Source of the DNA: a virus
Reading direction: 5' to 3' (one strand)
UHGV virus genome: UHGV-0375243
Length of the DNA stretch: 38,331 bases
Shown: positions 177 to 38,149 of the stretch, piece after piece
Numbering within the stretch: position 1 is the stretch's first letter
Layout: every line of letters begins with the position of its first letter
Position numbers and translations under genes: made by a program
Notes under the pieces: generated by a model
What the model saw: only the letters and a program-made list of their open reading frames with translations
Told to the model about the DNA's origin: nothing
Database searches by the model: none

Positions 177-881
177 ATGACTAATCAGTTTCCTATCAAT
201 TTAAATCCTGAAATCGTTGTTAACAATAGAGGTCAAGCCGTTACCTCTTCTCAATCTGTGGCTGCATTCTTTATCAAGCGCCATGATGATGTTCTAAAGA
301 AAATACGAAACCTTGATTGCTCACCAGAATTTCATAACCGCAATTTTGCGGAGATGTCCATTAACCTAAAAATAGGCAATGGAGCCATGAGGAAAACACC
401 ATTCTTTCAAATGACTAAAAATGGATTTGTATTTTTAGTTATGGGTTTTACTGGAAAGAAAGCTGCTCAATTTAAAGAAGCCTATATTTCCGAATTTGAT
501 AGAATGGAAGCCGAACTTGCAGAAGAACGTTATTTATCAATTGGTAATTCAACAGATAAAAAAGACCTCATAGCACTTGTCGATCAACTGCAACGTACTA
601 TCCATGAAGGTGAGTTTATCCCTGCTGGGCAAGTTGCCAAAGAATATAGCTTTCCTCGCACTCGTAAAAATCGCATCGAATTACTGGATGATTTTATGCG
701 TAACCCGAAGAAAGATGTTTTACACAATCTCCTCACCTATCTAAAAAAAGACGGTCACAACGTTGATGAAGCTGAAAGAACACTGCGTTGGGTTCGTGAA
801 TCACTGTTAGAAATGAACGGTGCAATGCAAGAAATACGCACACATCATCAATATGTAGAAAGTTTGATTAGTCGGTTATAA
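177..881 (+). CDS. Rha-family phage regulatory protein or antirepressor
   Basis: The N-terminus (AVTSSQSVAAFF-KRHDDVLKKIRNL) matches the phage Rha N-domain. An RBS (GGAG) lies 8 nt upstream, and a terminator follows the gene. Confidence 0.65.
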   Translation: MTNQFPINLNPEIVVNNRGQAVTSSQSVAAFFIKRHDDVLKKIRNLDCSPEFHNRNFAEMSINLKIGNGAMRKTPFFQMTKNGFVFLVMGFTGKKAAQFKEAYISEFDRMEAELAEERYLSIGNSTDKKDLIALVDQLQRTIHEGEFIPAGQVAKEYSFPRTRKNRIELLDDFMRNPKKDVLHNLLTYLKKDGHNVDEAERTLRWVRESLLEMNGAMQEIRTHHQYVESLISRL

Positions 882-887
882 CCACGC

Positions 888-913
888 TAAGCCCCTTTCG
901 AGGGGCTTTTGTT
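888..913 (+). terminator. Rho-independent terminator after the Rha gene
   Basis: The hairpin AGCCCCT-TTCG-AGGGGCT is followed by TTTTGTTG. Confidence 0.7.
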
Positions 914-979
914 GATTTGATTATTACATAAACTCACTATATGCTCCTTCTGTTTAATCATTTTTAGTGGAGCTTATGT

Positions 980-1396
980 ATGCCAAACAAATTTTTTCTT
1001 CTTGTTTTTTCATTGCTTGTATTATCGGGATGTGACCAAAATTTAAAAACAATATATTATCCAAATACTAGTTCATTTAACGAATATGTAATTCCACTAG
1101 CAGTAAGTGATGAGTTTTTATCAAAATTTTCAACTGAATACGCTAGTTATAATAAACATCTATATGACATATCTGTTAGGAACATAAATATAAGCCATGA
1201 TGCTTTCTATAAAATGAACGTTGATTTAATTATCACAGAAACATATGAGAATGCAAAAAAATCATATTGTATAAATAATAAATCCCCTTTATTTAGACTA
1301 AACAAAGAGGATATTAAAGTAACTCTTACGTATAAAGATAAAAGCGGTCAGTCCACTTTTCTATCTTTTTCATTAAACCCAAACTCATGTAAATAG
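980..1396 (+). CDS. Putative lipoprotein (moron), function unknown
   Basis: The signal peptide ends in the lipobox LSGC (LLVLSGCDQN). The gene is very AT-rich compared with its neighbours and sits between the tail module and the regulatory genes. Confidence 0.5.
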   Translation: MPNKFFLLVFSLLVLSGCDQNLKTIYYPNTSSFNEYVIPLAVSDEFLSKFSTEYASYNKHLYDISVRNINISHDAFYKMNVDLIITETYENAKKSYCINNKSPLFRLNKEDIKVTLTYKDKSGQSTFLSFSLNPNSCK

Positions 1397-4400: not shown

Positions 4401-4785
4401 CGCCAGCATCTGCTAACATTTGCTTATCGTTACGCTCACGATCAATACGTTGTTTTATTGCAGCGGTTTCTTGAGGAGAGTTTGAATGAATAAAGGCATC
4501 GGCATAGTCTTCATAACCTGAAATCGTTAATTCATCTTCAAATGGGTTATAGCCGTCTACATCTTCAAATTGATTAAAAGGTGCAGTAGCAATCAAGCTA
4601 CCAACTGAGTTATCGATACGAAACGCTGCATCACGTAATTCTTTAGTTTGCCGTCTATCATCAAGCGGATTAATAGGGTCATACCAAGACGGTGAAACAT
4701 TATCACCATAAGTAGGTTCAGGTTGCTGAACAGCATTAATATCCGCAGATAAAATATCATCAGGTTGTTGTTCGTAAATAGGCAT
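1402..4785 (-). CDS. Large internal virion or ejection protein (T7 gp16-like by position)
   Basis: At 1127 aa it is the last gene of the virion operon, with an ATGA start/stop overlap to the upstream gene. A Gly/Ala-rich hydrophobic segment fits a channel-forming ejection protein. Confidence 0.45.
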   Translation of the reverse strand: MPIYEQQPDDILSADINAVQQPEPTYGDNVSPSWYDPINPLDDRRQTKELRDAAFRIDNSVGSLIATAPFNQFEDVDGYNPFEDELTISGYEDYADAFIHSNSPQETAAIKQRIDRERNDKQMLADAGGAGVVSSIAMGVIDPINVAAMMIPGGAIVKGGSVATTAGKFALANTAGGVASEMALHSTQETRTLTESAINITLDAMIGGTLGSAAQLVKNRGELVTKVRNDLIGEQQSGQQNIPNNIPDNSSVGAMEVPNTTLEQETLKGPSFINRTMNVSPVGRVAQSPSKTARQINQQLTENNFTFAKNEEGIATFTAVETKVRGYETLVYKQVESTKDHFKQYRQSGGRDMNYYQFSEAVGDAMRNGDTHAIPQVAEAARSIRPIVEATKDRMVELGILREGVKVTTAQSYFPRIYKFDKILNDRTEFKKIIADWLEEINQTSINKAKGSLDRAEIGIDKARNASPQAERLGLEIKEAESWSGKKSLLMDDINKYQKIINEKNAVEVELNSLSNLTKLNKTQTRRQATLQRKLQRISDAENKLPTLQRSVDILDNPRKFRNEHRRLTRTANSLTRHDRIRQSALNRMTPLEREELDAAADDIVNKIIGAPSGIVPSELIPDGLVKRAGFTKDRTLNIPDERIKDYLESDVNYVMENYIRQVAPEIELTAKFGRVDMDNQIKAITEEYNQLIADATTPKERSRLEARREADLRDIRAMRDRLLGTYGAPKDPASLFVRAGRVARHVNFLRLLGGMTISSLPDMARPIMQHGLRSALKPLGKMLTDISAMRIAKADLREMGIGLEYALSSRSKVIADLSDPYSRRSYLERGLQWSSQKFGNFTLMNQYTDTMKMWSGLITQSKVLRAANTLDAGGSLSKREIKKLAHIGIDESMLKRIADQFKRHGEDLDGMLTGHSHLWDDRVVRETFQAAVLKDVRTTVITPGIGDTPLMMSSELGKIVMQFKTFFFATHNRALVSGIQSGDASFYYGALLQVALGSLVYVLKAKMAGRDINTEPANLVKEGLDWSGMMGWLGEPNNVLENLSGGTYGMSAMFGGPPASRYQSRNGIGALLGPTFDLGGDIKNITSGVLNGEFDDREVRSVRKLLPFQNLFYLSPLLNQVEEQLK

Positions 4786-7700
4786 CAGTTTTTATCCCAA
4801 GAAAAATAATTATTGAATTTATTTACTCGCTCATTGTGAGCTTCTTTATATTGCTCACGGATATTTTGACGACGTTCATCAAATTCTGAGCGTGATTTAT
4901 CCAATGCTTCTTCTCGTTCCCTTTTATTCTGTGCTTCCTTAACGCTTTGCTGACGTTTTTCCATTACCTCTTTGTACATTGGTGATGATGACTGTTCTGG
5001 TTTAAAGCGAATAGGCAAGCCGTTATCTCCCGTGTATGGACGATAAATAGGGATATCATCACTACCGGTTTGTTTTATCATTATGCCGTAGCTGTAATCT
5101 CTTGGTGTCACTGCATCAGAGACAATAACGATTTCAGTGCTAGAAGAAGCACCACCAAATGACTTAGACATTAATTGCTTTTTCTCTTCCTCCCATTGGC
5201 CAGCGATCCAGTTTCCAGCACCTGATTCATTAATACCGTATACAGCTTCTGGCGCATAACGCATAACTTCTTCACTGCCATTAATATTTGATACTGCCCA
5301 TGTTCTTTTAATTTGAGCGTTAGTCATTTTCTTGGCTAGTTCTGCATCACCGCCTGTTTCAGCAAAGTTAGCGTCATACAACGTTTGATAGTCACGTAAG
5401 TAAGCACCATTTTGAGTGCCAGGCTTACTGACGTTTGGTGAAGAAAATGGTTTATACCAAGGGTAAAAATCATTGATATTAGATTGCGCCGCTTTATCTC
5501 TATCCTTGATATATCCTTTATCCCTGATTTGAGAAGCGATCATTTGCTTAGTGCGTTCATCTTGTTCAAATGTCGTCTTAAATGCAGTTTCTACCGCTTT
5601 ATCATCAGGCATACCAGCACGACTTAAACTATATACTTTTGAGTAATACGCCATTGTGCTTGATGGAATATCAGTCGCTGATGCCGGATTGTTATCAAAT
5701 ATCTGCCCATACATTTTCGCGATAGGAAGAACAACTTCTGGATCTTTAGATGTTGCCCCCATATTCAATACAGATTTAACTTGTGATGGGATAATCCCTG
5801 TTCTTGCAGTAAGTTCAGCAACGGCATTTAAGCTATTATCATCACGTAAATTAAAGCTCTGCTGAATATGTTGTTCAAAGTAATCATCTGCTGCCTGCTG
5901 ATTATTCTTATCATTAGGATCAAGCGGAAAGTTATTTTGAATGGAAAGCTGTAATCGGTTAGCTGCAAACTGTTTATCTTGTTCCTTGATGTTCCCTTCA
6001 ACGAACTTACCAAATTTCTCCCAACGTTGAATTTTGCTTTCGTAGTTTGCTGCACCCGTTTGAGGTCTAATTTGTGATAACAAAGCTTGCTGTGCTTGTG
6101 GCGACATTTCTTTAGCTGCTGACATAAAACCAGCATAACGTTTAGCTTCTTGCATATCGGCAGACATGGCTGAACCTTTGTCATAGCCAAACGCAGAGAT
6201 TAATTCATCATGAGTAGGCGCATTAGGTGCTTCAAGCCCTCTTTCCCATGCTGCGTAAGAGTCCGCTACACGAGTACCGAGTTGTTGCTGTAACTCACCT
6301 TGTTTTTGCTTACGTAGCTGTTCTGCTTGTCGTAAATATTTTGCTTGGTCAGCTTCATCTAAGGCATCGAAAGCGGCAGATCCGGTTAATAGTTTTGGTG
6401 CTTCTGATGTCGCTTGTAACTCAACAAAACCAAGTGCTGACTGTATGCCTGTTGCTATCTGCTCATCAGTGTAATTAACACGGTTACGCCCATTCTCTTT
6501 ATACATTATCGCTGTCGATAAATGCGTTAAGGTATCTAAATTCGTTAAATCTAATGGTTGATTAGGTGCAACACCAAGGTAATCAGATACATACTCAATG
6601 TATGCCTGAGTATCATTATTATCTTCTGGTGGTGCCCAGCGATTAATGATCTGCTCTGGTGTAACAAAACCTTGTCGAGCATAAGAAAGTAGATTTTTAC
6701 CTAATGCTCTAATGCCGTGCTCAGGTGTGGCAAACTTAGCAAATGCACCATCATCACCGGTTTGCCCTACCCATTTATTGCTAGATATACGAATATTACC
6801 AGGGTTGTTGTTTCTAACACCTCTTGTATCACCGTTACTAGGTGTATACATATTCTCTTGCTGTTTATGCAGATTATCAGCGTAAGCAGTAGCATCTTCA
6901 GGGTTATCAAAAATCCCTAAGTGCTTACCTGTTTGCTCGTATAACGCAATAGCTTCATCATCAGATAACAGCTTGCCATCGTCACTTACGGTAGGTATCA
7001 GCACTTCACCATCATCGGTACCAATAGAAATCGTTCTTACTGTACTAATTGAGCCGTCTTCGTTTTTAACTGTTGGCCTATTGAGTAAATTAATATTACC
7101 CTGTTGGGTCATTCCTTTAACTTTACCAACAGTACCACCATAGAACGCATTATTTCTGGTAGCACCACCAAGGCTTGAAGGTTCTCCATTTCGTTCTAAG
7201 AACCCCATATAATCAGCACCGAGTTGATTTTCAATCGCTTTACGAGCAGTTGCCACTTTGAATTCTTGTTTCTTGGCGAGGATCTGCTCTTCACCCCAAC
7301 CGTGTGATAATCCAAACTCTTCTATTTGCTGAAACACTTGTTTATGTGCAGAGATATAAGCCTGATTATCACCGTACATTGATGCGGCAGACTCTGCATT
7401 TAATGTTAGCGTTGATTGAAACTGATCTTGTTCATAAGCTTTGATTTGCCCCATCTCATGACGATTAGCTTGTGATGCAAACTGAACCCCCATTTCTTGC
7501 GCTTGTTGCATAAAGCTTTGTCGAACAATATCGTCAGGTAATGTTGATGATATTTCACCAGCATAATCACGAAATGACTGCTCATACTCATACGCTTTAC
7601 CAATCGCATTCTTACCTTGCTGTGAAAGTAATCCATTTTGCGGATTGGTCATCAGTTCATTGGCTTTTTGTCGTAGCTGTAATGCGGCATCTTGCGCCAG

Positions 7701-7868
7701 TGCAACATTGGCCCTTTGTTTTGCTTCTGCAAACAAACCAACATATTGCTCACCAACACGACCAATGCCAGCGCCAAAAGCATCAGGTGATGATTGAACA
7801 GAAAACCCATTATTCGGTAACTGCTCAGGCATAACCGTTCTATTATCGTATGTAGGAACCTTTGGCAT
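4785..7868 (-). CDS. Internal virion protein with embedded muralytic domain (T7 gp15/gp16-like by position)
   Basis: A 1027 aa protein. Residues 345-440 ([12 protein letters not shown]...[10 protein letters not shown]...[12 protein letters not shown]) are homologous to the standalone endolysin at 33908..34375. Confidence 0.5.
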
Positions 7869-8910: not shown

Positions 8911-11353
8911 TACGCGGAATAACAGAGAGCACCGCTAACGGTAACGGATCAACCTGTCTAATAAAGACACGTCCGTTTTTGCTCCAATCTGCATCTAAAT
9001 TAATTTCAACAATGCCTGTGGCATCATCAACAGGATTGTCGTAAAACTCGAATTGGCGTTGAGGATACTCATATAACCGTTCTTTTTCAGTACCAGCCCA
9101 AATACCCCGACTACTATTTACAATTAAGCTGGCAACCTTAATAAGTTTCTTCTTATCAAGTAATGTTTCTTGCCCATTAATATGGATATCAAGTGTTTCT
9201 AATTCACTGGTAATAGGTAATCCAATATGTACAACGGCTGATGGTGTATCAATTTCCACTGCGCCATTGATGACAATGGCCTGCGGTGAAACATTAGCAT
9301 CAGAGAGAATATTAACTGTCTTACCTTCAAGATGATTTAAGCCAGCAAAGCGATAGCGGGCAATGCTCCATTCAGTAGTGGGTGTATTTTGTAATGCTGG
9401 TGGGATATTGCGATTAGCAGAAATAACCACTTGATTTGCAGATATATATTGAACAATCTTACAGCGAAGCTCTTTATGTTCATTATCTGCAAAATAAGGA
9501 ATATTGACGGCACTACCGATATCAGAAGCGCTAAAGACTGGATCGCCTGAAACCACTAATTGATAGTTTTCTTGATAGTTCCACTCACCCGCTCCACCAG
9601 TGATGGTTGCTGTTTTTGATACATCAGTATTTCTACCGTCATAACTTAAGCCAGAATCCACAAAGAAAGCATCTTCTGTACGAGTAAATAAACGGCTGGC
9701 TAACCGTTCTACATACCGAACCTGTTTACCGTTTACTGTGCGCTGAACAATAAAATAAGCTGAATCTTCATTGCCTTCACTGATCGAACACGTTGACTCA
9801 AATTTCCCTTCTGTCGATTGTGGCGCCCATGCAAAAACTTGTTGTTCTCTTAAATAGGTTAAAGCCAGCATTAACCCATCGTCACGTATACACCATGCAA
9901 TAGAATATGGAACTGTAGTAAATGACCAATCAACAATACGATGACGTTGAAATAGGTGATTTGCCAACATAGTTAAGTCAGTGCCTTGATACCCATCAAC
10001 ATCAAAGGAATACGATAAATCACGCACAGCACTACCTTTCTCTTGTACGTAAAGCGCAATATTCGCAACAGAGATTGGCGGTAAATCACTTGAGCCGTTA
10101 GCCCCTTGTGATGACATTGAAAAACTGGAAGGTGTAAGTACTTTATTCTGATCGCCTGTGATTTGATATTCACCACCAGAGGTCAATGCCACCAGCGAAC
10201 CGACATCGATCAAATGGCGAATTTCATTTACTTGACGGCCTGCATACGTGTAGATAATGCGATCATCATCTTGGATAGGGTTGTTACGTCCAAAGTCTTT
10301 ATAGTCACCGCTACGACTGGCCCATATCGTTTGTGGATAGGCACGAGAGCCGGCAAAGAATAAACGTTGTTGGTAATAAACAACGGTGCTTGGATAACCA
10401 TCAACATCATTCCACACTGCACGCGCCCATTTATGGCTTGCATTATCTTCACCAACGGCATTGGATGGAATATAAGAGAGCACCTTTCCTGTGGCTGTTT
10501 TGCCATCTTCACTAACAGTTTCAATTTTTACGATACCAAAACCACTATGCAAATATTCCCACTGGATCCCTGTATCACCACCCCAACCATCCCAACTCAT
10601 TCCTTCCGTGTGAGAAGGTCTTAGTGTTCCTGTTTTACCGCCACTATTGGCACGATAGTAGTTACTGTCAGCACGGCGTTGATCATTAAGGTTGGTTGTT
10701 TTATCTGTTTCCCATACAGGAACCGCATCAATATCACGTTGCTCTAAATAGAACTGTTTACCTATTTGCTCGCTACCAAAAATATCATGCGTAGACGTTA
10801 ACGTAATTTGCCCTGTGCTTGCACTGGCATAGACTTTCATTGCCTTATCGGTATTGATATCTTCAAAGGGGCCGTTCTTGGTTTCAACGGAGACTAACTT
10901 CCAATCATCATGATCGTAACGCTGTAACTCCATTGGTGGATAATCAGTATGAACAATCGTCATAACATCGGCTGATTGCGTATACTTCAAATCAAATAAA
11001 TCAGCTTCTTTATAAGGTGTCGCTAATTCAAACACTTCGCCTTTATGTTCACCATCAGCATAGAGAACCTGCCCACCATCTTTAAACACGCGAATATAAC
11101 GATCACCAAACTCTAACGCATAGGTTTGTACGGTGCTGAATTGGAAAGGAATAAGGCGAGACTTCTTATTTTGATACTTTGTTTCAGCAATAAATCGTGT
11201 GCCTGGTCTATTCTCAACGCCACCATATTGACGAACAATAAAGTTATGGCACTTGCGCAGTGCAGTTGAATACTTCGCAAGATCAACACGACCATATAGG
11301 CTTGGTGCAATTTCACCGCCTGAAAAACTAGGTTGAATAAGACTAAATGGCAT
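8891..11353 (-). CDS. Tail tubular protein B (T7 gp12-like)
   Basis: An 820 aa protein whose N-terminus (MPFSLIQPSFSGGEIAPSLYGR) follows the pattern of the gp12 N-terminus. It is placed after the tail tubular protein A gene. Confidence 0.5.
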   Translation of the reverse strand: MPFSLIQPSFSGGEIAPSLYGRVDLAKYSTALRKCHNFIVRQYGGVENRPGTRFIAETKYQNKKSRLIPFQFSTVQTYALEFGDRYIRVFKDGGQVLYADGEHKGEVFELATPYKEADLFDLKYTQSADVMTIVHTDYPPMELQRYDHDDWKLVSVETKNGPFEDINTDKAMKVYASASTGQITLTSTHDIFGSEQIGKQFYLEQRDIDAVPVWETDKTTNLNDQRRADSNYYRANSGGKTGTLRPSHTEGMSWDGWGGDTGIQWEYLHSGFGIVKIETVSEDGKTATGKVLSYIPSNAVGEDNASHKWARAVWNDVDGYPSTVVYYQQRLFFAGSRAYPQTIWASRSGDYKDFGRNNPIQDDDRIIYTYAGRQVNEIRHLIDVGSLVALTSGGEYQITGDQNKVLTPSSFSMSSQGANGSSDLPPISVANIALYVQEKGSAVRDLSYSFDVDGYQGTDLTMLANHLFQRHRIVDWSFTTVPYSIAWCIRDDGLMLALTYLREQQVFAWAPQSTEGKFESTCSISEGNEDSAYFIVQRTVNGKQVRYVERLASRLFTRTEDAFFVDSGLSYDGRNTDVSKTATITGGAGEWNYQENYQLVVSGDPVFSASDIGSAVNIPYFADNEHKELRCKIVQYISANQVVISANRNIPPALQNTPTTEWSIARYRFAGLNHLEGKTVNILSDANVSPQAIVINGAVEIDTPSAVVHIGLPITSELETLDIHINGQETLLDKKKLIKVASLIVNSSRGIWAGTEKERLYEYPQRQFEFYDNPVDDATGIVEINLDADWSKNGRVFIRQVDPLPLAVLSVIPRIDAGGF

Positions 11354-31864: not shown

Positions 31865-33079
31865 TTAATCTTTCTCTTTTATCCATTCATCCACCATATC
31901 AGCCCACTCTTGTAACATCTTCCTGCGCTGTTCAGCATATTCAGCCTTGTTGTAAACAGCTCTAACACCATTTTGAACGTGTGCTAAACATTTCTCTATC
32001 CAATCTGAGTTATAACCTGCTTCGTGCAATAGCGTACTTGCTGTGCGTCGTAAATCGTGAACGGTAACCGGTTCGAACTCAATACCCTTCTCATTGATAC
32101 GTTTTACGGTGCCATCAATCACGTTATTCAATGCAGCATTAGAAAGTGGCTTTTTAATATCATATCGACCAGGCATTAAGTAATTGCTTCCCATCGCACA
32201 AACTTTCATTCCTGTGAGGATATCCATTGCTTGGTCAGAGAGATAAATAACATGCTCTTTTCTCCCCTTCATTCGCCCTTTAGGGATCACCCATTGCCTA
32301 TTTTTAAAGTCTATTTCATCCCATGTAGCGTGAATAAACTCAGACTTTCTGACTAATGTTAGCAAGACAAACTTAACGGCCAATTTTAAGGTTGGATAAC
32401 AACTATAGTTTTCTAGTTCACGAAATAAGATACCGATTTCTTTCGGTGACATTGCCCTTTCTCGTGCCTGAAAAGTCCCTATGGAAGATGCTTTTATTGC
32501 ATCTGCTGGGTTACTAATTTCATAACCTCTATCTATGGCATAAGTAAAAACAGATCCAACAATCTCACGTACTTGTAATGCGGTCGCTTTTGCGCCTCTA
32601 TCCTTTATCTTTTCACACAAAGCTCTAAGCCGTGGTGTGGTGATCTCTTCTAGTTGAAGCTTGCCGAATACAGGATAGATTTCTTTTTCAATAATTGCTT
32701 CTTTCATGGCCCTTGTAGATTCGGCATATTGAGCATCATTAAGATATCTGACGGTATATTCACGAAACACCGTCTTATTCTTTTTCGACTCCACACCGTC
32801 ACGTTTTCTCGAAGCCGGTGATATACCTGCATTTAAGAGTTTTTTGGCTTCAATTAGCATTTCTCTCGCTTTAGCTAACGAAACACCGTCAGGACCATAA
32901 CTACCAAAGTATATCGTCTCTCTTCTCCCATTAAATCGATAGTCATATCGAAACGATAAAGTCCCGCCAGTATTGACTGCCACGTATAAACCATCTCGAT
33001 CTGCGACTTTATAAAGCTTCTCTTTTGGCTTTAAGCTTTTTAATTTTGTATCGGTTAGCATGCTTTCACCTTTCGGCAA
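31865..33079 (-). CDS. int: Tyrosine integrase (P4-type with DUF4102-like N-domain)
   Basis: The N-terminal LYVAVNTGGTLSFRYDYRFNGRR and the C-terminal HDLRRTASTLLHEAGY...HV catalytic region match this family. Confidence 0.85.
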   Translation of the reverse strand: MPKGESMLTDTKLKSLKPKEKLYKVADRDGLYVAVNTGGTLSFRYDYRFNGRRETIYFGSYGPDGVSLAKAREMLIEAKKLLNAGISPASRKRDGVESKKNKTVFREYTVRYLNDAQYAESTRAMKEAIIEKEIYPVFGKLQLEEITTPRLRALCEKIKDRGAKATALQVREIVGSVFTYAIDRGYEISNPADAIKASSIGTFQARERAMSPKEIGILFRELENYSCYPTLKLAVKFVLLTLVRKSEFIHATWDEIDFKNRQWVIPKGRMKGRKEHVIYLSDQAMDILTGMKVCAMGSNYLMPGRYDIKKPLSNAALNNVIDGTVKRINEKGIEFEPVTVHDLRRTASTLLHEAGYNSDWIEKCLAHVQNGVRAVYNKAEYAEQRRKMLQEWADMVDEWIKEKD

Positions 33080-33080
33080 A

Positions 33081-33377
33081 ACACCGTCAAAAAATAGATT
33101 TTATTGCGACGGTGTTTGGTTGAAATTATTTTTATTTATAAATGACACCGTCACATATACCGTCATTTTTTTCGGTTCTTGTCAACCATTACTAACCATA
33201 GAAAACAAAAAAGCCACCAGTAACATACTGATGGCTCTTGGTTTTTTAACCTTTATCAACTATTGCTGATAAACGTTATTTTATTCCCACTCAATTATAT
33301 TCTAGTAATTTAACTCACTGATAAATATAAATTATATCTAAATTAGATATCACTAACACCGTCACCGATACCGTCAT
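33081..33377. repeat. attP-like region with arm-type ACCGTCA repeats
   Basis: Direct ACCGTCA copies lie at 33083, 33147, 33159, 33358 and 33369. An inverted pair AACACCGTC/GACGGTGTT lies at 33080..33116, directly upstream of int. Confidence 0.45.
33201..33247 (-). terminator. Terminator (mostly minus-oriented) after the lysis cassette
   Basis: The hairpin GCCACCAGT-AACAT-ACTGATGGC is flanked by an A-run upstream and a T-run downstream on the plus strand. Confidence 0.5.
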
Positions 33378-33678
33378 TATGAAATCTGTCTACTTTTTCA
33401 TCGGTAAGAATTGAGGAGTTTTTCCTTTGCTTCCAGCTCTGAAATACAAAGGTTGAGTGTTCTGGTATTTTCATCTGCACGCTGAGCTTCACGCCCATAT
33501 CGTTCAAGTGTTTCTCGTAGTTGTCGAGAAAGTTCACTGGCTTTGGCTTTCTCAACTCGGCAGGTATTGGCGTTATCGGTACTTGCAACTTCTGTTTGCG
33601 TGGTACCGGTTGAGAGCCGCACCCTGTCAAAGTGATTAAGAACACGATCAAGCAAAGCATCTGTGCGTATCGTATCAT
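33343..33678 (-). CDS. o-spanin (Rz1-like lipoprotein), overlapped with the i-spanin gene
   Basis: The start was set to the internal Met at 33678. The signal peptide MIRYAQMLCLIVFLITLTGC carries the lipobox LTGC, and the mature part is Pro-rich. The gene starts inside the i-spanin ORF in another frame and runs 55 nt past its end. Confidence 0.55.
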   Translation of the reverse strand: MIRYAQMLCLIVFLITLTGCGSQPVPRKQKLQVPITPIPAELRKPKPVNFLDNYEKHLNDMGVKLSVQMKIPEHSTFVFQSWKQRKNSSILTDEKVDRFHNDGIGDGVSDI

Positions 33679-33892
33679 GCTGTTGTGCGTCATGGTATAT
33701 CTCCAACCTATTTTGCTGTTCATTGTCTGCTTGTTTACGCAGATCAATATTTGTGGCCATATCCTTTTCATCTAGCTGATTACCAGTAATCTGTTTACTC
33801 ATTGCTCGGTTATCAAAATAAATACCGCCAGCAACAAAGCCAGCGGTAAAGGAAACAGCCAAAGCAATTAACGCTATGACGGTTTTATTCAT
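33398..33892 (-). CDS. i-spanin (Rz-like)
   Basis: An N-terminal TM segment (VIALIALAVSFTAGFVAGGIYF) is followed by a periplasmic charged coiled-coil region. Confidence 0.55.
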   Translation of the reverse strand: MNKTVIALIALAVSFTAGFVAGGIYFDNRAMSKQITGNQLDEKDMATNIDLRKQADNEQQNRLEIYHDAQQHDTIRTDALLDRVLNHFDRVRLSTGTTQTEVASTDNANTCRVEKAKASELSRQLRETLERYGREAQRADENTRTLNLCISELEAKEKLLNSYR

Positions 33893-33907
33893 TAATCATT
33901 ACCATTA

Positions 33908-34375
33908 TTAAATTAATGAAAAAGCTCTATCGAAAACATCATCAACATAAGGTTGTTGAGCATTTTCAACAGAAATGATTGCTTTTGCCATTTTGATTGA
34001 TGTTGATTTATCAAATAGGTTTAAGCATTCGTGACGATCAAAGCCAGTATCCTTGCAAACTCGTTTAATATAATTTTCAGTATGGTTGTTATCAGATGAT
34101 GGCGCCCATCGTTCTATGATTTCTTCAACAGTATCTATTTTGTCACAACAACCAACATTAGACTTACCTTTTTGCTTACTATAAGTTTGAAGCAATTTCA
34201 TTAATGCCCGAACACCATAATAAACATTGATAAAGGTGCAAAACTTATCATCACTTTGTACTGTTGCTAGGCCTTGCCATTTAGAAGAACCATGTCGAAT
34301 ATTGCCCGGATTATTATTTCTGATACCTCTTACGCCAGTGTTAACGTAATCGTCTTTAAAAACTGACATATTCAC
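33908..34375 (-). CDS. Endolysin (unclassified muralytic domain with RNNNPGNIR motif)
   Basis: The gene sits between the holin-like genes and the spanins. It is homologous to an internal segment of the virion protein at 4785..7868. Confidence 0.5.
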   Translation of the reverse strand: MNMSVFKDDYVNTGVRGIRNNNPGNIRHGSSKWQGLATVQSDDKFCTFINVYYGVRALMKLLQTYSKQKGKSNVGCCDKIDTVEEIIERWAPSSDNNHTENYIKRVCKDTGFDRHECLNLFDKSTSIKMAKAIISVENAQQPYVDDVFDRAFSLI

Positions 34376-34644
34376 CCCTTTATAAACTTTATGACATTAC
34401 CTTTACTGACCAACAACGTTGTGCAGATCAGGATATTGGCAAAGATGTTGTAGATATCAGCGTGATAATTAGGATCGAAGTAAGCGCGAATAGGTACGCT
34501 TGAAGAGTAAGCAAGAATGAGGAAAGCTAACCATCCACCTTTTTTACAGTGTTGTCTGCCATCACGTTTAAAATAGAACACACGTAGAAAAATGACGGTA
34601 CAGATGATGGCATTAACAATAGTGAGCAATGTTTCGCATTTCAT
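34372..34644 (-). CDS. Holin- or antiholin-like small membrane protein
   Basis: A 90 aa protein with about 3 TM segments, coupled to the endolysin gene. Confidence 0.4.
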   Translation of the reverse strand: MKCETLLTIVNAIICTVIFLRVFYFKRDGRQHCKKGGWLAFLILAYSSSVPIRAYFDPNYHADIYNIFANILICTTLLVSKGNVIKFIKG

Positions 34645-35012
34645 TGTTGCCCTCCTTGTTTCGGTATATCAGCCCTTCCGTATGCTTTTACGCTTAACTT
34701 AACCACAAGCAAAGCGGAAACAAAAGCACCTACGGCATCGATATGTTCGATTTCGTATTGCTCCGGTTTCACACCGAAAAGACCAGTAACAGAAATAAAG
34801 ATAGTTGCTGCAGGGCTAAAGAATATAAGACCACAAACGAAGCTTAGAAAGGCTAATACCGATCTACGTTTAAAGCTATATTCAGTAGCTGCAGTAGTAA
34901 AGAAGATGGCTCCCAACAGCGAACCCATAACAACTTCTGCTGGAAGCCCTGCGAAGTAACCAAGAAAAGCAGTAGTGCCAATCCCAGCTTTTGTGTAGAC
35001 ATCTTCTTGCAT
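34641..35012 (-). CDS. Holin-like membrane protein
   Basis: A 123 aa protein with 3-4 TM segments and a charged C-terminus. It is the first gene of the lysis cassette. Confidence 0.4.
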   Translation of the reverse strand: MQEDVYTKAGIGTTAFLGYFAGLPAEVVMGSLLGAIFFTTAATEYSFKRRSVLAFLSFVCGLIFFSPAATIFISVTGLFGVKPEQYEIEHIDAVGAFVSALLVVKLSVKAYGRADIPKQGGQQ

Positions 35013-35086: not shown

Positions 35087-37321
35087 TTAAGATGAGTAAA
35101 AATCATTACTATTACTTGAATTAAATATAGTAATCATTCTTTTACCTGTTATTGTTTCAGAATTCTTTCCATTGATAGATGAGTATTGGTTCAAAGCCTG
35201 TATCTTAATTCTTTTTTCTGGGTTTTTTACAATTAATGTATACGAAAAATATAATCCTTTTCCGTATGTTAATGATGGTAAATTAACAGTAACCTCATCA
35301 TATAATGAGTTATCTATAATATAATTCTCAAAACCATTATTTAAATCAAAAGATTTATCACTTACTTCTAATGTTTGCCTTTTTAAAAAAACTAAATTAG
35401 CTCCATTTACACATGAGTAAATTTGATTTTTCAGTGTGTAAATAGAATCATGAAAATTAAGACCAATAAAGCAAGTCCCGCTTGTAACTTGAACAACCCT
35501 TCCTATGTGATTTACAAATGTGTTATCAGAAAGTAAAATGCCAGAGTTAAAACTATTGCTAGAATTTTTTGAATTAATTAAAACTCCTGTTTCTCTATCA
35601 GAAAAATACCCACACATACTAAATCTATTATTTTTAATTTCACCACATGATCCTGTATACCACACATGCGAAATTGAATGTTCAACTACGTTATTTGATA
35701 CAATACAATTAGTAATATTATGTGTAAATGTATTTCCGTCACCACCATAACTTACCGTGTCTATACTTATAGGATATCCGCAACCAAGAATATAATTACC
35801 ATCAATAAGTATATTTCTTGAGTCAATACCAGCCGTTACACCACGACTTAAATTTAAATATCTATTATTTATAGATGTCAGCCTATTTGTATAAGCAACA
35901 AAAGGCTTACTAGATGAATTTAATGATAGTATACATATATGAGTTATATTTGCCACTCCATTAATATTTATTTCAAAAGAGCTCAATGAATTAACTTTTG
36001 AATAAAAAACATTATGATTGTTTTTTGACAAAATAGATGAATTAACACTAATACTAATATCACCATCAGAAATTACATATATTGCACAAGGATTATTAAA
36101 AAATAAATTATTATTAAAAACCAACTTACCATTACCACTTACAATATTTTTATTTATATTTACCCCTCTCTTATCCCAAGAATCATCGGATTCAAGATAG
36201 TAAGCAGGAAGTACGTAGTATGGAGATGATGAATCAAAAAATTCATTTCTACATTCAATAGATATCCCCATACCTGAACTAACATGAGTAAATTCAGTAC
36301 TATCAATTATAGAGTCTTTAATCTCAAATCTAGTTTTATTATTGCTTTTATACCAATTTGTACCATTCCCGTATGCAATAGGCCCATTATCTGTTTTTGT
36401 TATACAATCATATAAACCAGTAACTCCATCTGCTGATATTGTTCCATTACTTTCACGATTACTTGATTTAAAACAACAATATTTTGAATTTTTAAAAACG
36501 CAATTATATGCGCGATAATGTCCAAGCAATGTATATATGTATGGGCTATTTAGTTTTGATTTAGAATCAAAAGAACAACCAATAAATATTATATCACCTT
36601 CTTTATTCCTAGTGTCGAATAAACCTATTTTACCATAAATACCTTCGTGTTTAATCGTACTATCTCCTGAATATAATATTTTTGTTTCATTCCCTATTAT
36701 TGTTAATTTTTTTGATTCAGAGAAATATGGTTTATCCATTTCTATCTGTCCTATATCACCAATATAGCACTTACCATACGCAATCTCTGACATTTTTAAT
36801 GCGTGATAAAAATCACCATTAAAGTTCAATATATTATAATCTGGAGAATACTTTAGTGATCCAATATTAATTAAATTATATTCGTCTGGTTTTGTATTTG
36901 GGGTAATAGTTATTTTATTTTTAGTACTGTTCTTATAATAAAACCCTTCATAAAAACATGATTCATTAACTTCTATGTTACCACCTAAATCAAATATTGT
37001 AGGGTTATTTTTTATAATACTTACCCATTTACCTTCAGGGTTATCTGGTGACCAAATACCTCCATCATTTCGAGGATCATCACCCAATTCATGTGGCAAA
37101 ACACCTCGGTATAGATACCATTCATTATTATACATAACAATTTGGTTTTGCTTTGATAGTATTTTACCTCTTTCCCATAAACCAATTGGTGATAAATAAC
37201 AATCCCCCATATAATTTATAATGTAATTAGAGACATATTCACCTAAATATTCTTTATTTACTGCATTCTTTTTTATTTTTTGGGTTATCAATATTACTAA
37301 TACGATTACCTTTAGCATCAT
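35087..37321 (-). CDS. Tailspike distal part (beta-helix-like receptor-binding or depolymerase region), out of frame with the N-terminal part
   Basis: An N/S/I/Y-rich protein with repetitive beta-helix-like segments. GC is about 28-30 percent. The 5' end overlaps ORF 37254..37724 by 68 nt, shifted +1 in frame. Confidence 0.5.
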   Translation of the reverse strand: MMLKVIVLVILITQKIKKNAVNKEYLGEYVSNYIINYMGDCYLSPIGLWERGKILSKQNQIVMYNNEWYLYRGVLPHELGDDPRNDGGIWSPDNPEGKWVSIIKNNPTIFDLGGNIEVNESCFYEGFYYKNSTKNKITITPNTKPDEYNLINIGSLKYSPDYNILNFNGDFYHALKMSEIAYGKCYIGDIGQIEMDKPYFSESKKLTIIGNETKILYSGDSTIKHEGIYGKIGLFDTRNKEGDIIFIGCSFDSKSKLNSPYIYTLLGHYRAYNCVFKNSKYCCFKSSNRESNGTISADGVTGLYDCITKTDNGPIAYGNGTNWYKSNNKTRFEIKDSIIDSTEFTHVSSGMGISIECRNEFFDSSSPYYVLPAYYLESDDSWDKRGVNINKNIVSGNGKLVFNNNLFFNNPCAIYVISDGDISISVNSSILSKNNHNVFYSKVNSLSSFEININGVANITHICILSLNSSSKPFVAYTNRLTSINNRYLNLSRGVTAGIDSRNILIDGNYILGCGYPISIDTVSYGGDGNTFTHNITNCIVSNNVVEHSISHVWYTGSCGEIKNNRFSMCGYFSDRETGVLINSKNSSNSFNSGILLSDNTFVNHIGRVVQVTSGTCFIGLNFHDSIYTLKNQIYSCVNGANLVFLKRQTLEVSDKSFDLNNGFENYIIDNSLYDEVTVNLPSLTYGKGLYFSYTLIVKNPEKRIKIQALNQYSSINGKNSETITGKRMITIFNSSNSNDFYSS

Positions 37322-37724
37322 AGTAGTTCGAGAGATAGGTAGGTTTTCGTAGACTTAGAGAGAAAGTACCTAATGCTTTTTGAATTAACATCGTTAGATA
37401 ATCAAAGGCATCTTCATGTACTTCAGCAAAGAATTTCCCCTGATTACGTAAGTCAGTTTCTTGTACAACAGGTAAATCGCGTTCTAATAATATCTTCCAG
37501 CCTTTGACTAATGGTTTATTTAAAACCACCTTACCGCCATGATAAGAACCTGCACCAACAATAGTGTAATCAGTACCATTCTTTAATGTAGTTTCATTAC
37601 CTTCGCTGTCAGCAACCACCACGGTCAAATGCTTACTTTCAAAGATACGGAATCGAAAATCAAAATCCGTTGTTACGCCATTGCCTACATACTCTTCATG
37701 GCTTAGTTCAGTAGATACCGTCAT
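37254..37724 (-). CDS. Tailspike N-terminal particle-anchor domain
   Basis: A conserved N-domain (MTVSTELSHEEYVGNGVTTDF...TDLRNQGKFFAEVHEDAFDYLTMLIQ). It ends prematurely within an A6-T-A6 tract. Confidence 0.55.
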   Translation of the reverse strand: MTVSTELSHEEYVGNGVTTDFDFRFRIFESKHLTVVVADSEGNETTLKNGTDYTIVGAGSYHGGKVVLNKPLVKGWKILLERDLPVVQETDLRNQGKFFAEVHEDAFDYLTMLIQKALGTFSLSLRKPTYLSNYYDAKGNRISNIDNPKNKKECSK

Positions 37725-37882: not shown

Positions 37883-38149
37883 GTGAGGACTTTAGCAATG
37901 GAAAAGAAGTATGAATACCCTGCACCAGCTAACTATCCAGATGTAGTGAATACCGATGAAGGGATTGAAAAATTAATTACAAAATCAAACCTTGAAGCAC
38001 TTTTAACAAAGATGGGAGAAGATGGTCATGATGTATCAGCTCCACTTGTAGAACTGATAGCAATGAGAAACTTTATAGTTCAAAAGATGAGAGGCAATAA
38101 AAATATAATACCGTTAGTGGAATGTATTTTGTTTGAGCTTAAGAAGTAA
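37883..38149 (+). CDS. Hypothetical protein
   Basis: An 88 aa ORF with an RBS (AGGA) and a terminator downstream. Confidence 0.3.
   Translation: MRTLAMEKKYEYPAPANYPDVVNTDEGIEKLITKSNLEALLTKMGEDGHDVSAPLVELIAMRNFIVQKMRGNKNIIPLVECILFELKK

Follow-up and report, generated by a model that had tools for sequence, protein, structure and literature searches.

The window analysed here, the whole stretch of 38,331 nucleotides of virus genome UHGV-0375243, carries on its minus strand two overlapping ORFs that belong to a tailspike. The proximal ORF (37254..37724) encodes 156 aa corresponding to the N-terminal virion-anchor domain and is preceded by a strong Shine-Dalgarno sequence, GAGGAG, located 7 nt 5' of the ATG. 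Its product ends in ...NIDNPKNKKECSK*, the last four residues (ECSK) being out of frame and followed by the stop codon TAA. The distal ORF (35087..37321) is listed with 744 aa, its true coding part being codon 153 of the tailspike onward, and comprises the hinge DAVNKEYLG and a distal receptor-binding/enzymatic module without a recognised family. Its frame is +1 with respect to that of the proximal ORF, which it overlaps by 68 nt. Within the overlap is an A6-T-A6 tract (plus 37269..37281, T6-A-T6 on the plus strand), read on the minus strand as AAA AAT AAA AAA, i.e. Lys-Asn-Lys-Lys; the minus-strand sequence at the site is CCAAAAAATAAAAAAGAATGC and the coding strand over the site is CCAAAAAATAAAAAAGAATGCAGTAAATAAAG. 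This exact 13-mer occurs once in the window, with 0.02 occurrences expected from shuffled sequences, and amounts simply to K-N-K-K encoded by AT-rich codons, the local GC content being 25-36%. The ORF coordinates, the 68-nt overlap, the +1 frame and the position of the tract given in an initial annotation of this DNA were all reproduced. The same annotation held that dropping one A would fuse the two frames, and this was borne out: removal of one A from the second A6 run gives ...NKKNAVNKEYLG... in a computed product of 878 aa.

The phage is a temperate epsilon15/BPP-1-like podovirus of Proteus mirabilis, and the neighbouring genes fit this assignment. A lysis cassette (33398..35012, minus strand) directly downstream of the tailspike encodes two holins (PHROG 198/217), an endolysin (PHROG 873) and an Rz-like protein; it is followed by the integrase, and the tailspike-lysis gene order is common to all related prophages. 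On the other side of the tailspike, across a short variable region, are the genes of internal virion proteins of 1127 and 1027 aa, and related contigs encode a GP7-type capsid protein, Gp10-like and Bbp16 proteins and a Head-tail_con portal. In one sister prophage (L025, GCA_048014785.1), a CGA to TGA change at 9870..9872 creates a stop at codon 985 of the 1027-aa internal virion protein gene, the homologue of the window gene at 4785..7868; the product is reduced to 984 aa, and the mutation looks real. Three contigs (L003, L027 and L028) continue from the end of the window into its start (junction 38331/1); the window thus represents the complete genome of about 38.3 kb in circularly permuted form. 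The junction between the integrase and the Rz-like gene lies inside the window, with the attP region at about 33079..33343, whereas integrated relatives pass into chromosomal sequence at about 33128..33281. Among the genes examined there was no second fibre or spike gene, so that the tailspike is probably the only receptor-binding protein of the phage.

Judged from the sequence of its N-terminus and from its genome position, the gene is a predicted modular podovirus tailspike with a T7 gp17-like anchor. Residues 1-162 of the conceptual fusion match PHROG 1640 'tail protein' (E 7e-83), 12 further tail-protein PHROGs also match, and a PDB match was obtained to the N-terminus of the Klebsiella phage Dpo31/Dpo36 tailspike (28lx/8ck1, E 1.4e-23, residues 1-164); a T7 gp17-like N-terminal anchor is thus recognised by homology to PHROG 1640 and Dpo31/Dpo36 over about 150 aa. 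The Pfam profile PF03906 (Phage_T7_tail) scored 18.3 bits, under its 25.2-bit cutoff. The matched PHROGs, annotated as tail protein, fibre or spike and with about 540-1080 profile positions, align only with the first 160-190 residues, and every alignment spans the break between the two ORFs. With tailspikes of the Dpo31/Dpo36 type (PHROG 1640, 1171, 5662), the gene shares a homologous N-terminus of about 150-165 aa ending in a D-A-x-x-K-x-Y hinge, swappable distal modules behind the anchor, and a location between the internal virion protein genes and the lysis cassette. Unlike them, it has a distal module without a family match, and it is broken by one base. The anchor and the distal module, which in this family lie on one continuous chain, are divided between two ORFs in the window but form a continuous protein of 878 aa in at least 37 other contigs; as the allele in these contigs is near-identical, the one-chain design of the family is the ancestral state of the gene. 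The normal product would therefore be a single 878-aa tailspike composed of anchor, hinge and distal module. Residues 1 to about 150 may act as the conserved anchor docking the spike on the tail, as their homology suggests, the hinge would carry the invariant Asp of a D-A-[AV]-[NT]-K-x-Y motif, and the distal part might be a swappable low-GC module that binds or degrades a host surface polysaccharide, a role predicted from the homology of the N-terminus only.

For residues 172-878, which make up the distal module, searches of Pfam, NCBIfam and PDB found no family match. Its sole distant homologue, P0002, has 46% identity and a different N-terminus. The GC content of this part (35087..37268) is 27.7% vs 38.9% for the window, and the module has the look of a receptor-binding cassette of an uncharacterised kind that was brought in from elsewhere, with the join about 8 codons past the lesion described below. 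An AlphaFold2 model of the intact 878-aa protein P0001, based on a 22-sequence alignment, had a mean pLDDT of 44, too poor for a fold search. With its low GC content, its single distant relative and no known family, the module is a putative surface-recognition domain of Proteus, of modest interest.

In homologues, the gene is uniformly a single ORF. This was the case at 16 of 16 homologous genome loci (502-913 aa), sampled from Proteus, Morganella, Citrobacter, Kluyvera, Buttiauxella and others, out to Pseudomonas, and for all of the 120 best protein matches (490-1080 aa). The 156-aa ORF was also searched by HMMER against 1.84 billion cluster representatives, with a similar result: each of the 150 best hits is at least 237 aa long and has the anchor domain at its N-terminal end, in residues 1 to about 150. 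Neither a split gene nor an end at this point was found in the 16 genome loci, the 120 best protein hits or the 150 cluster representatives. Many Proteus alleles are 88-92% identical in the first 18% of the protein, with no identity beyond it. The Asp of the hinge motif D-A-[AV]-[NT]-K is kept at 15 of the 15 loci that can be aligned across the hinge, while the KNKK tract is not conserved in other species or alleles and is replaced by unrelated residues (PKLGTDAVNK, PSRPQDAATK and others). Searches at the DNA level were also made. A gapped pattern allowing any tract length (AATATTGATAACCC N10-20 TGCAGTAAATAAAG) had no hits among IMG/VR viral contigs, from which the window itself is absent, and none among JGI metagenome contigs. 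When the tailspike region was compared by Megablast with 50,697 phage records, no match was obtained, and the first 25 kb of the window gave short matches only, of about 46-400 bp, mostly to Proteus phages.

These comparisons bear on the possibility that the two ORFs are a natural pair, in which a 156-aa stand-alone adaptor would bind a separately translated spike. Adaptor-plus-spike systems exist in some other podoviruses, and beyond their existence nothing specific speaks for such a design here. A stand-alone homologue of the anchor was not found among the 150 best representatives (0/150 shorter than 237 aa), the PHROG profiles cross the junction to residues 161-190, a Shine-Dalgarno sequence was looked for at both internal ATGs of the distal ORF and was absent from both, and near-identical alleles are fused. 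With the anchor never occurring alone in this set and the closest alleles fused, a two-protein design is effectively refuted. Independent homologues starting or ending at these points, which the initial annotation had named as part of the outcome that would overturn its view of one broken gene, were looked for, and none was found among the genome loci, best protein hits and cluster representatives described above.

The view of one tailspike gene broken by a 1-nt indel is upheld by the intact allele itself, which is present in many P. mirabilis genomes. The protein search with the fused product that had been proposed earlier, with an expected length of about 880 aa, was run against 5.8 billion proteins and returned P0001, a full-length P. 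mirabilis protein of 878 aa with about 100% identity over the whole conceptual fusion. P0001 and 10 close full-length variants occur on at least 37 P. mirabilis contigs, with Asp153 in all 11 proteins, and the complete gene is encoded in 24 of the 24 contigs read with the P0001 allele. P0001 differs from the conceptual fusion at residue 153 and at Thr34 only, and the Thr34 of the window is also present in another intact allele, P0133. The protein of the distal ORF is identical to residues 172-878 of P0001 (707 aa), and there is no second lesion. The natural hinge is ...NKKDAVNKEYLG with Asp153 (..NKKDAVNK..), not ...NKKNAVNK. The hinge that had been proposed for the fused protein is therefore correct as regards the fusion, which is the natural form in the intact 878-aa alleles, but incorrect at residue 153, which is Asp and not Asn.

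Comparison with intact loci also places the lesion. DNA alignments were made with eight loci carrying P0001 (L001-L008) and with three loci of higher overall similarity to the window (L025, L026 and L030; 98.7-99.98% identity). All 11 intact loci read CCAAAAAATAAAAAA-GAT-GCAG, and the window reads CCAAAAAATAAAAAA-GAAT-GCAG. An extra A (T on the plus strand) has thus entered codon 153 on the minus strand, changing GAT (Asp) to GAAT; the inserted base can be assigned to either of two positions, sense nt 458 or 459, which correspond to plus 37267 and 37266 (lesion at 37266..37267). The window at the lesion reads GAATGCAG, with the extra A on the 3' side of the tract, separated from the second run by a single G. 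The length of A6-T-A6 is the same in the window and in 11 of 11 intact loci, and since the tract is equally long in the intact alleles, the indel is not a change in tract length. The extra base had been placed inside the second A6 run, and this has to be revised: the intact loci keep A6-T-A6 and lack the A of GA[A]T. The insertion is the sole gap in 5.0-5.1 kb of DNA that is 99.3-99.9% identical to related loci, and the nearest intact relative, L030, is 99.86-99.98% identical to the window and has its Thr34 too. The insertion is private to the window, is not programmed and does not alter the tract; located in codon Asp153, one nucleotide 3' of A6-T-A6, it shifts the frame in this one sequence, whose product would be the 156-aa anchor alone, with the distal ORF left untranslated. 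The account of a slippery homopolymer, plausible as it was, is settled by aligning the intact alleles: the tract is innocent, and the lesion adjoins it.

Several further properties of the site were examined with respect to programmed or slippery expression. Reaching the distal ORF requires a +1 shift; the -1 frame at the tract reads CC AAA AAA TAA and stops immediately. The folding energy of the 99 nt on the 3' side of the site is -15 kcal/mol (z = -0.62 vs shuffles), which indicates no significant stimulatory RNA structure there. The G and GT tail assembly chaperone genes of phage lambda have a two-ORF layout that is conserved in all known homologues and is expressed by a programmed -1 shift. 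They resemble the window in having two overlapping ORFs in the phage tail region with an A-rich heptamer in the overlap. A -1 frameshift of this type was rejected here: the homologues are single ORFs and the two-ORF layout is unconserved, a +1 shift is what leads into the distal ORF, a -1 shift runs into a stop, and the RNA behind the site shows no significant structure.

Phage contingency loci, such as the polyG tracts of receptor-binding proteins in Campylobacter Fletchervirus and the poly-A tracts of T2/T4 agt and rIIA (PMC12633550), offer another comparison. They share with the window a coding mononucleotide repeat, which adjoins a +/-1 frameshift in a receptor-binding protein gene. Their runs, however, are polymorphic in length, both within and between populations, and consist of 7-11 G or 9 A, while those in the window are of 6 nt and invariant in 11 related loci, with the extra A outside the run and after a G. 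Transcriptional slippage is known to rescue an interrupted gene, for example tssM of Citrobacter rodentium (PMC4256274), and the window has in common with this case that an A run lies close to the break in a frameshifted gene, for which partial rescue by RNA polymerase is conceivable. The surveyed cases of slippage use eight or nine A or T, with 9A/9T in IS elements, and selection against slippery A/T runs is evident from about 9 nt in many bacteria (PMC1088944); the longest run here is 6, in two runs separated by T. Nor does the gene resemble a pseudogene with multiple hits, as the lesion is single and the distal 707 aa are identical to P0001. In the defining properties that were examined, the frameshift does not correspond to a -1 frameshift site, a contingency locus, a slippage site or a multi-hit pseudogene, and it is an ordinary single-base indel.

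A slippery tract giving variable tailspike expression had been among the readings first proposed, and it does not agree with homologues that are never split, a tract that is unconserved, a required shift of +1, a closed -1 frame and runs of 6 nt. A reversible switch or a slippage rescue, in which the A6 runs would gain or lose an A, or RNA polymerase or the ribosome would slip at AAA-AAG, is accordingly very improbable. Its outcome would be A5-GAAT, encoding ...NKKNAVNK..., in a fraction of genomes or mRNAs. Some observations are in its favour. Contig L028, which has the haplotype of the window, ends in A5-G and, with AATGC next, would be an in-frame variant; repeats of 6 or more bases in T2/T4 undergo +/-1 frameshifts at about 1e-4 to 1e-3 per genome (PMC12633550, preprint); and +1 re-pairing of tRNA-Lys from AAA to AAG may be sterically possible. 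These are outweighed by the constant tract length, which holds for the 11 related loci read and for the 11 protein variants on at least 37 contigs, and by Asp153 in 15 of 15 homologues aligning over the hinge, which would make an Asn-containing rescue product atypical. The fused A5-GAAT protein was not found by exact look-up in a collection of 15 billion proteins; nor were the canonical fusion in its Thr34 version or a partial protein guessed for ERR975240. Repeats of 6 or more bases are, moreover, under-represented in tail-fibre genes (PMC12633550, preprint). The neighbouring A runs would provide at most a low-frequency route to a compensating -1 deletion, and there is no sign of a designed switch. 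A source population made up of a mixture of A6-GAAT (off) and A5-GAAT (on, Asp153Asn), which would reversibly switch the only receptor-binding protein, is likewise very improbable, its only support being the terminal A5-G of the single contig L028.

For the private insertion, two explanations have to be weighed: an error in the deposited consensus and a genuine, very recent null mutation. An error, in the form of an indel that arose in base calling or assembly where the sequence is A-rich and of low complexity, appears slightly likelier than a real mutation, and a rough probability of one half may be assigned to it. The GAAT allele is a singleton that no other contig has, and none of the exact products of 156, 744 and 707 aa (P0132) is on record in the gene-position index. 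The distal ORF has no amino-acid change or second lesion compared with P0001, which implies that the event is either very recent or not real. Another point concerns L028 (Logan contig ERR975240_1), which alone among the contigs matches the window with 100% identity, over 6.7 kb, and is the only other sequence with its exact haplotype. At 6690..6705 (window 37270..37285) this contig stops inside the tract, ending in ...AAAAAATAAAAAG / ...CCAAAAAATAAAAAG, with A5-G vs A6-G in the window. A break and a length variant located exactly at the frameshift site suggest noisy or mixed reads in the ERR975240 sample.

A genuine null mutation is nevertheless a serious candidate, if rated somewhat below even odds. 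The strain would then truly carry GAAT, the null allele reading AAAAAAGAATGC, and only the 156-aa anchor would be made, resulting in spikeless, non-adsorbing particles; this might reflect early prophage decay or a mutant born in culture. In the 28,587 bp that could be aligned to close relatives, the GAAT insertion is the sole gap, and this alignment covers 46 of the 61 homopolymer runs of at least 6 nt in the window. With the only indel in 28.6 kb and 46 homopolymer runs correct, the assembly is not generally indel-prone and its consensus looks accurate. The insertion turns a single A into AA, which is not a change in homopolymer length and is atypical of a homopolymer miscall. An NCBI contig of 38,498 bp, probably the source record, has a 707-aa gene call, P0132, identical to the distal ORF of the window from Met38, so the frameshift was already in the deposited contig and does not stem from a later step. 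That genuine inactivating mutations arise in prophages of this lineage is something that the nonsense codon in another virion gene of the sister prophage L025 illustrates. Against a genuine mutation are the singleton status of the allele, with its exact 156-aa and 744-aa products not on record, the lack of further decay in the distal ORF, and the difference between the window and its twin contig L028 at the tract.

For annotation, the two ORFs should be treated as one frameshifted tailspike gene, either as a pseudogene or, if the reads support a correction, as a protein of 878 aa with Asp153; to label them as adaptor and spike, or to mark a recoding site, would be unwarranted. If the insertion is real, the distal module would, as the homology suggests, either not be made or be made but unable to attach, and the particles would lack functional spikes, so that the phage or prophage should be non-infectious. 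A dead tailspike would not prevent the element from being maintained, excised and replicated in the lysogen, and the circularly permuted assembly fits with this. A real insertion would matter to users of the phage or of its depolymerase.

Two other regions vary among the related prophages or lie next to them. The variable region of the window (177..1396 and 37883..38149) contains a Rha/anti-repressor-like gene and small ORFs on the opposite strand. Related prophages differ in what this region contains, with ORF6N or pRha versions and extra genes of 356-360 aa in L003 and L004. In several P. mirabilis genomes (L002, L003 and L006, 14754..17376), an island is located beside the lysis end of the prophage, outside the phage represented by the window; it encodes a tyrosine integrase, an RVT_1 reverse transcriptase and an HTH protein in a retron-like arrangement.
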